Assembly: GCF_963921235.1 (NCBI RefSeq)
Contig: NC_086097.1
Location: 43,836,001 to 43,900,000, forward strand
DNA: 64,000 bases
Source: Mobula hypostoma
Taxonomy: Eukaryota
Direction: 5' to 3'
Below the pieces are notes generated by a model. The model was given only the letters and a program-made list of their open reading frames with translations. It made no database searches and was not told where the DNA came from. Position numbers and translations under genes: made by a program. Positions 19,735-23,510 of the stretch are shown here, in pieces (within the stretch, counting starts at the first letter, position 1; every line of letters begins with the position of its first letter).

Positions 19735-20130
19735 AACACAGGTATACAGGTTGCTTAAGAAGTCATTTCACTCACTTGCCTTTATTGGTCAGGGCACTGA
19801 GTAGAAGAGTTGGGATGTCATCATATAACTGTATAAGACATTGGCGAGACCACACTTGGAATATCTGTTCTTGATCCCCAGTTATAGGAAAGATGTAATT
19901 AAGCTGGAAAGACTGTAGAAGAGATTCACTAGGATGTTAGAGAGCTGAGGAGATATAAGAAGAGATTAAATGGGTTGTGGCTTTTTTCTCTGCAGTGTAG
20001 GGAGCTGGGGGGTGACTTTATGGAGGTATATTAAATTATGAGGCTATAGTTAAAGTTAATGGCCACAGTCTCTTTTCCTAGAGTGGGATAGCCTGAAATC
20101 AGAGAGCATTGATTTAAGGGGAAAGATTTA

Positions 20131-20975
20131 CAGATGGCTTCTTTGTAATTTCATCAATATGTTGGGCCCAGGATAGATCTTCATAGATGTTGACACACAG
20201 GAACTTGAAACTGCTCACCCTTTCCACTGCTGATCTCTCGTTGTGTGTTCCCTCAAAAAACAGCAGCATGAAGTAGGCATTGCTATTGTCAGGATGACCC
20301 AAGCCAGTGAAATTGGATCTGCTCTAGACCTATTGTGGTGATAAGCAAAGTTGGGCAGAGTTGATTCTAGCCATGACCAACCTCTCAAAGCAGTTCATCA
20401 CAGCAGATGTGAGTGTCACTGGACGATAGTAATTGAGGCAGCTCACCTTGCTCTTCTCGGGGATTTGTGTGATTGTCTCGTTTTTGAAACAGTTGGGAAC
20501 CTACGTCTGCAGCAGTGAGATATTGAAGATGTCTTTGAACTCTCCCGCCAGCTGGTTGGCACAGGTTTTCAGAGCCCTACAAGTTACACCATCAGGGCCT
20601 GATGCCTTGTGAGTGTTCAACCACTTTAAAGGTGTTCTGATGTTGGCTCTGAGACAGAGATCATAGGGTCACCAGATGCTGCAGGGTTTTGCACAGATGT
20701 TTACTCTCCCTTGTATAGAAGGCGTTGAGCTCATCTGGGAATGAAAATCACAGCCATTCATGATGTTAAGTTTTGCTTTGTAGGAAGTAATGGCCATCAA
20801 CCCCTGCCAGAGTCTCTAACCTCAACTGGAATAGTTTTTTGCTCTTAAAATAGCCTGCCGTAGGTGGTGCTTGTGTGGTTCTGGATCACAGGTCTTGAAT
20901 GCCACAGATCTAGCCCTCAGGAGATTACAAATCTCCTGGTTCATCCACAGCTAGGCTTGGGCATGTCTGCTATGT
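20131..20975 (-). mobile_element. Degraded Rex1/Babar-like LINE fragment
   Basis: ORF 20114-20302 AVERVSSFKFLCVNIYEDLSWAQHID; upstream remnants resemble CANQLAG and CFERLVM. Confidence 0.7.
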
Positions 20976-21327
20976 TCTTGAACATACTGGCCATACCCAT
21001 CTAGGTTAGCAGGAATGTGGAATGAGCTGCCAAAGGAAGTGGTGAACATGGGTACATTACAATGGTCAAAAGACATCCGGATAGGATAGATACACGGATA
21101 GGATAGGTTTGGATGGAAATGGGCCAAAGGCAGGCAAAGGAGGCGAGTTTAAGATAGAAACTTAGTTAGCAAGAATCAGTTTGGCTCCAGGGCCTATTTT
21201 CATGCTGTATAACTGTTACACTCTGTCTATGACAAAATAATTGTCATATTATTTTCTATATTTGTAATTACTTCACTTTTCTTAAACTGATGGAAATGGA
21301 AATACCATGAACAATTAAAAAAAAAAT

Positions 21328-22160
21328 TTTATTACCTTAAACAGCTGTGATGTTTCTGCTGCTGGATTGTCGAGTCATCAGCCGGGTCCATCCGTCTTCA
21401 GACGTTTCATCCCCTAACCCGGGACATCCTCGGGATGGTGGGACAGCAGAAGGTGATCGGTCTTCTACCCCCGACGGTCAGACATCCAGCTACTGTTGTC
21501 CCTTCGCAGCCAAAGCCAACTGGAGGCTCTCTCTGCTGCCTGGGCCATGGTGTTAACGGCTCTTGTCCTGGTTCTCCCTTGTATCCCTAAAGCTGCCATC
21601 ATCTTCCAGCATGACATGGCCGGGAAATCCTCTTGCCCCCACTTCGACTGGGAAGTTCCACGTCTGCCAGCCTTGCCACCTGCAGTCCGCCACCAGGTCT
21701 TCGTACCTCGCAAGCTTCCTCTCATGAGCCTCTCGGCATCGGGTCTCCCATGGTACTGTTAGCTCTATCACCACGAGCTTCTTTGCACTCACTGACAATA
21801 GTAGAACGTCTGGTCGAAGTGTGGTCTCTACTATTGGTGGGAACACCAGCTTCTTTACAAGATCGACCTTCATCTCCCAATCCTTTGCCACGCTCAGGAT
21901 ACCGTTTCTACGCTTGTTTGTTGTGCAGCTTGTTCCCCGGTCCTGATGAAGTTGATGAAGTTTGGTTGGCTGTCCTTTTTGTGGTCCTTTTTCCTCTCTG
22001 TCTCCAAAGTGTGGGCGAGTGCTCTCAAAACCTGGTCGTGTCTCCATCTGTACCGACCCTGGGAAAGGGCAACCTGGCACGAGGAAAGAATATGCTCTAG
22101 GTTGGCTGCTTTCTGGCACAGATGGCACCTTGGATCTTCTGTTATTCCCCAGTTCCACAG
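21328..22160 (-). mobile_element. HERO-like non-LTR retrotransposon 3' end (CCHC zinc knuckle, restriction-like endonuclease, 3' UTR), frameshifted
   Basis: Minus-strand translation of ~22150-22000: PRCHLCQKAANLEHILSSCQVALSQGRYRWRHDQVL; ORF 21553-22158 LRPDVLL...IELTVPWE...AHERKLARYEDL...GWQTWNFPVEVGARGF; C-terminus AAERASSWLWLRR ends at 21465; AATAAA at 21333-21328. Confidence 0.9.
21364..21438 (-). ncRNA. Hammerhead-like RNA in non-circular (pseudoknotted) strand order in the HERO 3' UTR
   Basis: GGAUGU-C-CCGGGUU-AGGGGAU-GAA-ACGUCU-GAAGACGGAUG-GACCCGG-CUGAUGA-CUCGACAAUCC: stem I 7 bp, stem III 6 bp, intact core, GUC site; stem II unclear. Confidence 0.6.
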
Positions 22161-23510
22161 GTTTGTTGGAGTTGGTAATATATCAGTTAGAATCTACTTA
22201 CACTGGAATGATTTCTGTTGCACTTTATTTTATACAATTGTAGTAACGGAACTATAATAATGGAACTGCAATTTGATGTACCAGAAGTTGTCACATTCCT
22301 GATATATGAATGGCACTGCAACTTTATAGAGTTTTGTTTGAAGAAAGTTTTTTTTTGTTAAATTGGAATAGTTAGTACTGTGTCAACAAGCAACGTTTTG
22401 TTAAACAGATCTAGTGAAGTATATAAGTGGGAAGGTAATTATTCTGCATTTGTAGGCCTGTCCCATTTGTACCTGGCTTACTTTCCAGACTGCCCTTTGA
22501 AAATATGGTTTTCACTCATTTAGTGCCAGGTCAATGTGTCCTTAGACTTGGAACTGTGAATAAGAATGTGTGTGCAATATCCCCTTCCTAATCCTCTGTG
22601 ACTTATTAAATGATATTGGAACTAATTGGATGAAATACATGAAAGAGTGTTTGATGCATTTTCAATCAGAGTATCCAAGAAGAAGTTTACAAACCTCTCA
22701 GTAGGTAGAATCAATAATAGATCAAATTGTATAAGTGGGTGGCAGGAATTGATCTTTTATCTTTTTTTTATGTTCCACCGATTATTGGTCAAATTTCTAC
22801 AAGGTGAAGCCAGCAGCTTTGCATGAAATTGCTGCAATGCTCTCCTTGAATACCAACAAGTTTGGAATTATCATTCTTCAACAAACGTTAAATTTTTGAG
22901 CAACCAGACAGCCATTCAACAACTTTTATTGTGATTGCTCAGTTATGATTTGGCCATGATAGAGTTCAGTGTAGGAATGTGGAGCTGCAGCAATTCCTTG
23001 TCTTTTTGCTGGAAAATCCCCCGAATAACCTCCAAACCTGGTTAACAACTTCTTTCTTGGGCTAAAGTAATTGTTGGTAGGCTTAGATTAAAAAAAACCT
23101 ATTTGAATGCTCCACAAACAAAATGCTGGAGGAACTCAGCAGGTCAGGTAGCACCTATGGAAATGAATAAACAGTTGATATTTCAGGCTGAGGGTTCCTT
23201 GTTTACATTTTTAAATCACTTTTTATATTATGGCTATACTTAGTAGCTTCTAAATCTCTGAAATATTGAGTGTTTGGGTAAGTTAGCTAAGACAGGAGGA
23301 ATGCCTGGATGTATTCAGCTGTTCCTGTGAGTGAGTTTAGTTCTGATATCATGGCCATTCCTCCCCACAGGTGATGGGAGATTTGAGTGTGGAAGGTGCT
23401 GCTTCTGCTGCATGGGGCCTTGTCCTGAGGTCAGCACGTTCTCCGTAGAGAGGCTCAAGTGATCGAATGTAGGGAACCAACCAAAGGCTGGTTAATATGG
23501 TGAAGACTAA

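Follow-up and report, generated by a model that had tools for sequence, protein, structure and literature searches.

Minimal hammerhead ribozymes reportedly reside in the terminal repeats of Penelope-like elements, in work ascribed to Cervera and de la Pena in 2014 and to Lunse, Weinberg and Breaker in 2017, and Eickbush and Eickbush in 2010 and Ruminski et al. in 2011 are said to have described ribozymes resembling that of hepatitis delta virus (HDV) in R2 and other non-LTR elements (retrotransposons that lack long terminal repeats). To our knowledge, the ribozymes known in elements with a restriction-like endonuclease (RLE) are of this HDV-like kind and are situated at the 5' end. Here we analyse a 64,000 nt stretch of the genome of Mobula hypostoma (assembly GCF_963921235.1, contig NC_086097.1, positions 43,836,001 to 43,900,000 of the forward strand), which we refer to as the window and number from its first base, and in which the minus strand of a truncated RLE-type non-LTR retrotransposon carries a hammerhead-like RNA. 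On balance we regard this RNA as a genuine hammerhead ribozyme motif with a new connectivity, selectively kept at the end of the open reading frame (ORF) and the start of the 3' untranslated region (UTR) of RLE elements.

The motif has features in common with both of these systems. As is said of Penelope-like elements, the hammerhead is borne by a retroelement and a partial copy upstream of a full copy is common; those hammerheads are, however, reportedly canonical type I, tiny and active as dimers, in elements with a GIY-YIG endonuclease, whereas the motif described here spans ~110 nt with six helices in an element whose restriction-like endonuclease follows an R2-type reverse transcriptase (RT) and a CCHC motif. 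As with the HDV-like ribozymes of R2, which are thought to process co-transcripts, we would be dealing with a ribozyme in the RNA of an RLE element, but those ribozymes are said to belong to another class, to lie at the 5' end and to cut at the 5' junction, whereas the hammerhead lies at the ORF end with a predicted cut ~92 nt before the 3' end.

In strand order the closest described RNA is the type SGC hammerhead. Eckert et al. (2023; PMC10085705) treated the hammerhead as built from blocks termed S, G and C, on the assumption that none of these can be interrupted, and they described and validated type SGC (the HRIMA-1 motif and its variants), in which stem I passes to stem II via ~3 nt while a fourth helix ties the other sides together; cleavage was shown and all four helices were needed. 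The first-pass annotation of the window had stated that non-circular hammerhead permutations are published, which holds, and the order that it saw is that of type SGC as this paper sets it out. The block order, the conserved core and the ~3 nt linker from stem I to stem II are shared by the two, as is a bridging helix (here X) that abuts stem I and is nested with stem III (PMC10085705). In the account given of type SGC, with which the structure lines of the supplement agree, the stem II 5' strand and the bridging strand come directly after CUGAnGA (PMC10085705). Here, in contrast, both precede the cleavage site and A9 instead enters a closing helix, P0, which together with a hairpin, P1, forms a four-way junction, and block C is interrupted. 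The hosts differ as well, since type SGC was found on metatranscriptome contigs that also carry hairpin ribozymes and are taken to be circular RNA replicons (PMC10085705), whereas the hosts here are animal retrotransposons and cleavage is predicted only. A further comparison is provided by R2, the proteins of which recognise small elements with a pseudoknot within the final ~70 nt of the 3' UTR (PMC12222951). These are likewise pseudoknotted RNAs near the 3' end of an RLE element, and the passages of that paper on the R2 3' UTR report no hammerhead core (PMC12222951). In our literature searches, with subscription journals outside their coverage, we came upon no paper describing a hammerhead in an RLE or HERO element, and the connectivity read from the alignments, in which the core strand is opened between A9 and G10.1, is one not described before.

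Recurrence, strand order and helices of the motif

The family to which the window copy belongs (family A) has at least 40 copies, at 91-94% identity, in the M. hypostoma assembly of 3.48 Gb. When the endonuclease domain was searched against this assembly there were 8289 first-look candidates, which include families whose proteins are 37-52% identical to that of the window, and 52 loci of such diverged families were taken for comparison. At each of these loci the same blocks are present in the same order ~230 nt after the endonuclease match, with helix sequences that differ; stem I, for example, reads CCGGGU/ACCCGG in the window family, while family B has GUGGUU/AACCAC and families C and D have UGAUGUU/AACAUCA. 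With a seventh family, F, which was found in front of full-length 5' ends, the motif is present in seven families of the assembly whose endonuclease domains are 37-59% identical. Loci of the assembly were gathered by protein search and then scanned by cmsearch with a covariance model (R1) built from 19 real copies of the assembly and containing nested helices only; R1 matches 89 of 89 such loci, and matches once in the whole window, at 101 bits. A scan of metagenomes with the endonuclease-domain alignment yielded 296 relatives, of which 80 loci were kept. R1 matches 74 of these, all on the coding strand and 130-430 nt after the protein match (66 with E < 1e-5, top score 119.5 bits), while the opposite strand of the same loci (193 kb) gives zero matches. 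Clustered at 80% identity, the 74 copies form 32 groups, and with a 70% threshold they form 17. Counts given below refer to metagenome copies unless the assembly or one of its families is named.

The motif extends over 21477-21367 on the minus strand, ~110 nt with six helices (Table 1). It begins with P0a, the P1 hairpin, the stem II 5' strand, Xa, the stem III 5' strand and position 17 (H17), which are followed by the stem I 5' strand, a linker of 2-4 nt, the stem II 3' strand, GAAA and the stem III 3' strand, and then by Xb, the stem I 3' strand, CUGAnGA and P0b. Much of this had been recognised in the first-pass annotation, which proposed a hammerhead-like RNA with core strands in the non-circular order site, GAAA, CUGAnGA, and these blocks are read in the window and in its relatives alike. 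Its coordinates and bases for CUGAUGA (21381-21375), GAAA (21408-21405), GUC (21425-21423) and the stop codon (21467-21465) are right, stems I (CCGGGU/ACCCGG) and III (GGAUGU/ACGUCU) are as it drew them and both covary, and the far ends of stems I and II are indeed joined by a short covalent link, of 3 nt in the window. The CCAUCC/GGAUGG helix that it took for an extension of stem III is real and covaries, but it is a separate helix bridging stems I and II, and the motif as a whole is larger than first proposed.

Covariation is seen in every helix. In an alignment of the metagenome copies (A3), itself fitted to four helices, pairing holds in 88.5% of 2619 cells, compared with 34-42% when the partners are slid; the covariation score of 0.662 compares with 0.07-0.10, and 39 of 40 pairs change on both sides; in the set from the assembly 89.5% of cells are paired against 31-45% in the control. 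Taken singly, P0 has changes on both sides at 13/13 pairs among the 74 copies (11/13 in the assembly set), P1 at 8/8, X at 6/6 with 96% of cells paired, and stem III at 5/6, the sixth being the fixed A15.1-U16.1 pair. All seven pairs of stem I change on both sides, pairs 1-5 each with 4-5 standard pair types, and stem I covaries in this way even though it is not part of R1.

For stem II, the 5 nt preceding G12 were taken as the 3' strand, and the 5' strand was located only by its alignment column; the anchor was used because MAFFT gaps before GAAA split the 3' strand in two families. So defined, stem II pairs in 333 of 355 cells (93.8%), a value reached by 0 of 1000 shuffles and compared with 18-55% in slid controls, and pairs 2 to 4 each show four Watson-Crick pair types; in the assembly 418 of 445 cells are paired. 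This differs from the stem II first proposed, in which GGAU pairs with AUCC downstream of CUGAUGA after a 7-nt insertion following A9, as in a type SGC hammerhead. A 4-bp pairing of GGAU with GUCC or AUCC is possible in the window family, but the bases after A9 pair with the strand at the ORF end to form P0 in every family, with all 13 pairs covarying, and the strand before GAAA has no downstream partner in families B to F. Its partner is instead upstream, GUCCC at 21444-21440 in the window, beginning with G10.1. Of the AAUCC at 21368-21364 that was to supply the stem II strand, 21368-21367 are the decayed 3' end of P0, the last two bases of P0b, which are GG in most copies of the family. A check of related copies thus bears out the first-pass stems I and III and not its stem II, and we consider a downstream stem II very improbable.

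It also has to be considered that short hammerhead words came together by accident in the GC-rich tail of a retrotransposon, as CUGAUGA by itself should occur several times in a sequence of 128 kb and the free-energy z-score is -0.12 (see below). Conservation with covariation in 89 copies of the assembly and 74 of the metagenomes, the empty opposite strand and the single match in the window leave chance with a negligible probability. We therefore hold the conserved hammerhead fold, as judged by comparative alignment, to be almost certainly real.

The alignments also indicate how the interrupted core is held together. A9 is not covalently followed by position 10.1, because P0b comes after A9 and P1 comes before G10.1. 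There is no spare base at the P0a-P1, P1-G10.1 and A9-P0b joints, which sets the core in a perfect four-way junction; stem II would stack on the core as in any hammerhead, and P0 on P1. Xa follows the stem II 5' strand after one base, and the column between Xb and the 3' strand of stem I (Xb-Ib) is empty in 64 of 74 copies.

Between stems III and X is an internal loop with one N-G-A strand (G 56/69, A 62/71) and one N-N-U-G-A-N strand (U 56/69, G 66/69, A 67/69). The kink-turn consensus consists of a C-stem, a 3-nt bulge, tandem G-A and A-G, and an NC-stem, and the sequence signature of the loop fits this consensus (stem III, NNU, GA, N and X, opposite N and GA). A kink-turn-like loop would bend X back from stem III toward stem I, and such a sharp bend would explain how the far end of stem III and X can meet the far end of stem I. 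The corresponding geometric puzzle, the meeting of the end of stem III and the bridging helix with stem I, is left open in the description of type SGC by Eckert et al. (PMC10085705).

Other pairings were tried and rejected. A canonical type III reading that uses a second GAAA, with GAUGU/ACAUC as stem III, leaves no usable stem II, and this second GAAA in the tail of the window family is absent from the other families. A long-range CUGCUG/CAGCAG pairing is confined to the window family and competes with P1. In family C, a pairing of the strand before GAAA with GGGUCU of the P1 arm and loop was superseded by the conserved partner just after P1. The local CGUC-UGAA-GACG hairpin that had been named as a competitor of the fold is not conserved in other families. 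Four sequencing runs, available as contigs, place the end of family C near L112:748-749, and most copies in other runs carry a G at the spot where family C of this genome shows a U-C mismatch within stem III.

Table 1. Features of the retrotransposon copy and of its hammerhead-like motif (window coordinates, listed in 5' to 3' order of the minus strand after the first entry).
Feature	Position	Strand	Basis
Retrotransposon copy	21331-22200	-	ORFs, zf-RVT match, RLE alignment, homology boundary
P0a (CCGUCGGG), 5' strand of P0, made up of the final sense codons of the ORF	21470-21477	-	Pairs with 21374-21367
P1 hairpin: arms 21469-21462 / 21452-21445, loop 21461-21453	21445-21469	-	8/8 pairs covary
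Stop codon UAG, within the P1 5' arm	21467-21465	-	Read from sequence
Stem II 5' strand GUCCC, first base G10.1	21440-21444	-	Pairs with 21413-21409
Xa (CCAUCC), strand of the helix bridging the far ends of stems I and II	21433-21438	-	Pairs with 21393-21388
CGA, non-bulged strand of the kink-turn-like internal loop between X and III	21430-21432	-	Consensus N-G-A
Stem III 5' strand GGAUGU, last base U16.1 at 21424	21424-21429	-	Pairs with 21405-21400
Position 17 (C); predicted cut between 21423 and 21422	21423	-	Core conservation
Stem I 5' strand CCGGGU	21417-21422	-	Pairs with 21387-21382
3-nt linker UAG (21416-21414), then stem II 3' strand GGGAU (21413-21409)	21409-21416	-	Stem II pairing
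G12 A13 A14 (21408-21406), then stem III 3' strand ACGUCU (21405-21400)	21400-21408	-	Core conservation
GAAGAC, bulged strand of the kink-turn-like loop: 3-nt bulge, G-A, one base	21394-21399	-	Consensus N-N-U-G-A-N
Xb (GGAUGG), abuts stem I without intervening base	21388-21393	-	X pairing
Stem I 3' strand ACCCGG	21382-21387	-	Stem I pairing
C3 U4 G5 A6 U7 G8 A9 (CUGAUGA)	21375-21381	-	Core conservation
P0b (CUCGACAA), immediately 3' of A9	21367-21374	-	P0 pairing
3' tail of the element, ending ..UUUAAGGUAAU	21331-21366	-	Homology end among 30 copies

Core conservation and the likelihood of cleavage

Twelve fixed core positions are each kept in 93-100% of copies, among them C3 (69/70), U4 (68/70), G5 (69/70), A6 (71/71), G8 (67/71), A9 (70/71), G12 (66/71), A13 and A14 (both 70/70), A15.1 (69/70) and U16.1 (69/71), with the A15.1-U16.1 pair retained in 64 of 67 cells and the 10.1-11.1 pair G-C in 56/71 and G-U in 6/71. 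Position 7, in contrast, takes all four bases (U 45, C 11, A 10, G 5). That R1 rewards core bases is a caveat on these counts, the extent of such selection being small because 74 of the 80 loci matched. Of the 71 copies, 27 have C at position 17, 25 have A, 18 have U and one has G, and G is found in 0 of 89 copies of the assembly, where the base depends on the family (family A has U, families B, E and F have C, and families B2, C and D have A). The first-pass annotation had counted GUC among invariant blocks; CUGAnGA and GAAA are kept in related copies, but the site is GUH rather than a fixed GUC, since 28 of 31 copies of the window family have U at position 17 and the other three, the window copy included, have C. 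CUGAnGA, GAAA, U16.1 and a position 17 other than G are jointly intact in 58 of the 89 assembly copies, and the remaining 31 have point mutations as expected of decaying copies. On these alignments the pattern is that of the classic hammerhead and is typical of catalytic ones.

The RNA would thus be predicted to cut itself 3' of position 17, between 21423 and 21422, and we think it probable that it does. About 25-30 bp, contributed by P0, stem II, X and stem III, would keep the two cleavage products together, and with the products clamped in this way the cut would be readily reversible. Any particular biological role is well below self-cleavage itself in likelihood.

Several observations weigh against an active ribozyme. 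None of 40 scored 3' ends of family A starts at the predicted cut site, all of them continuing upstream, and among 30 aligned copies there are no indels at that site, so that the templates must have been copied into DNA either uncut or religated; such intact templates are compatible with rare cutting, with reversible cutting or with cutting that is blocked on the template. A cut at position 17 would also detach the tail on which target-primed reverse transcription depends, and so seems self-defeating, and the partial copies found upstream of full-length elements (see below) are of all lengths rather than the 92 nt expected of a cut RNA end. In the window copy and its family the 10.1-11.1 pair is G-U and not G-C. 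The structure was derived from the same sequences in which it was scored, so the percentages of paired cells given above are inflated. The nested minimum-free-energy fold of 21470-21340 has -39.3 kcal/mol, with z = -0.12 relative to shuffles, a test that is uninformative here because the structure is pseudoknotted and hence invisible to nested folding. Rfam hammerhead models give no match at E values up to 10 in 20000-23000 of the window or in 11 motif loci, as is expected from the permuted, non-circular strand order. Finally, we know of no tested precedent for a chain break between A9 and G10.1.

The integrity of the copied templates (40/40) is also the main point in favour of a different explanation, namely that the motif is a hammerhead-shaped pseudoknot that does not cleave and that serves as a recognition module for the RT in target-primed reverse transcription, its core being kept for shape. 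The RNA would then be inactive in vivo through bound protein, through translation across P0 and P1 or through the broken link between A9 and G10.1. The recognition by R2 proteins of pseudoknotted elements in the last ~70 nt of their 3' UTR is in keeping with this (PMC12222951), and the location of the motif, 36-65 nt from the 3' end of the element and overlapping the stop codon, would be ideal for cis capture of the nascent protein. However, avoidance of G alone at position 17 (1/71 and 0/89) is not expected from a purely structural role, and neither is the retention of every catalytic base (G5, G8, G12 and C3) beside a free N7. In addition, we know of no natural hammerhead fold that does not cleave. 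We regard a non-cleaving module as somewhat unlikely, and note that cleaving and protein-binding roles are not exclusive of one another.

The element, its stop codon and head-to-tail copies

The retrotransposon copy in the window is ~870 bp long, 5'-truncated and without poly(A), with one frameshift. Its CCHC zinc knuckle corresponds to a Pfam zf-RVT match (E 1.4e-06), and its PD-(D/E)xK-like endonuclease has the invariant RPD...E.T..WE...K of the RLE alignment; a longer copy elsewhere has, in addition, a reverse transcriptase (RVT_1) and ~1.2 kb of N-terminal region. The 3' boundary, at 21331, is where homology among 30 aligned copies stops. From its RT, CCHC and RLE domains the element is an RLE non-LTR retrotransposon, for which the HERO clade named in the first-pass annotation is a possible placement. 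Relatives of the full protein, ~1000-1170 aa in length, are annotated in bivalves, teleosts and lancelets. Many relatives lie on contigs of 3.6-4.0 kb, approximately one element length, and these may be unit-length transcripts, or collapsed tandem or circular forms in the assemblies. Adjacent to the window copy, at 20330-20668 on the minus strand, are reverse transcriptase fragments of another, unrelated retroelement.

As read in the window and at L065, L098 and L101, the ORF stop is inside P1 in families A, B and D, and in family C it is 7 nt before P0a; the stop codon of family D is the UGA of the palindromic P1 loop. Where the ORF ends inside P1 a terminating ribosome must melt P0 and P1, which would couple folding to the end of translation. 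The P1 loop itself is a 6-nt palindrome in 77 of 86 copies of the assembly and 42 of 65 metagenome copies, compared with a mean of 5-6 and a maximum of 14 for shuffled loops. The word varies (UGAUCA, UGGCCA, UGUACA, UCAUGA, CAUAUG) but remains palindromic; in the window the family palindrome UGAUCA is mutated to CGAUCA (loop 21461-21453). Retention of the palindrome while the word changes suggests loop-loop pairing of two RNAs, that is, dimerisation through kissing loops.

Full-length 5' ends have a conserved start, ~80% identical (76-82%) between families over ~100 nt, and we take the first ~100 nt of the element to be a conserved 5' signal, acting as RNA or as DNA. This start contains CUGG..ACCAGUG (L029:1790-1915 and 32 other places in the assembly), while the proteins are only ~40-50% identical. 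At 20 of 24 full-length 5' ends (L029:1589-1830, L195 and L197-L217 among the loci compared), a piece from the 3' terminus of the same family lies immediately in front, with an exact junction. These pieces range from 15 to >290 nt, and 11 of them include the whole motif. The N-terminal ORF of a next element is seen ~200 nt after the motif at 8 of 52 metagenome loci and 3 of 82 assembly loci. Such head-to-tail partial copies could result from template jumping or from the copying of a circular or tandem template, and given the exact junctions we lean towards a templated junction over template jumping. At one locus of the assembly (L198), an upstream partial copy of ~88 nt begins near the strand before GAAA, right after a (GATA)n microsatellite. 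On one metagenome contig of 9.1 kb, two elements of different subfamilies (L171 and L125) are arranged head to tail ~3.7 kb apart.

Because full-length copies usually have a 3'-end piece directly in front, the use that we favour for a self-cleaving motif is in processing of the element's own RNA. The ribozyme in the upstream piece would trim a read-through transcript, and two cuts would give a unit-length RNA with ends that could re-pair. A more elaborate possibility is that the hammerhead both cleaves and ligates to give circular or end-paired unit-length RNA for retrotransposition by RLE elements. A transcript extending from the upstream partial copy through the full copy would be cut at both ribozymes, the half-ribozymes at its ends would re-pair via P0, stem II, X and stem III, and the nick would be resealed. 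Reverse transcription would start at the tail and go more than once round, yielding the exact junctions between tail and 5' end and the upstream partial copies of variable length seen at the 20 of 24 5' ends. Palindromic P1 loops would let two such RNAs kiss, and termination of translation inside P1 would time both folding and the cis capture of protein. We consider this circular scheme as a whole distinctly improbable.

Implications for hammerheads and RLE elements

If the connectivity is as described, a hammerhead can occur in nature with one of its core strands opened between A9 and G10.1 and with a four-way junction as its clamp. With the core strand opened at this point, the six-permutation scheme, together with the descriptors and Rfam models built on it, would miss the whole class. 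This would be the first hammerhead tied to long interspersed nuclear elements (LINEs) with a restriction-like endonuclease. The class appears to be large and old, with seven families in one 3.5-Gb animal genome, >8,000 first-look endonuclease candidates, and relatives of the protein in bivalves, fishes and lancelets as part of the case. A hammerhead whose products remain clamped may favour ligation and may thus be of interest for RNA engineering.

For the elements themselves, the motif points to an RNA-processing step not known before in this group. Handles on RNA processing, on the choice of template in cis and on the formation of head-to-tail copies come from the position of the motif across the stop codon, from the palindrome in its loop and from the partial copies that stand head to tail with full ones at exact junctions. 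Were the circular scheme to be true, a LINE would retrotranspose in a rolling-circle-like manner, and what drives it would be a hammerhead with a new topology.

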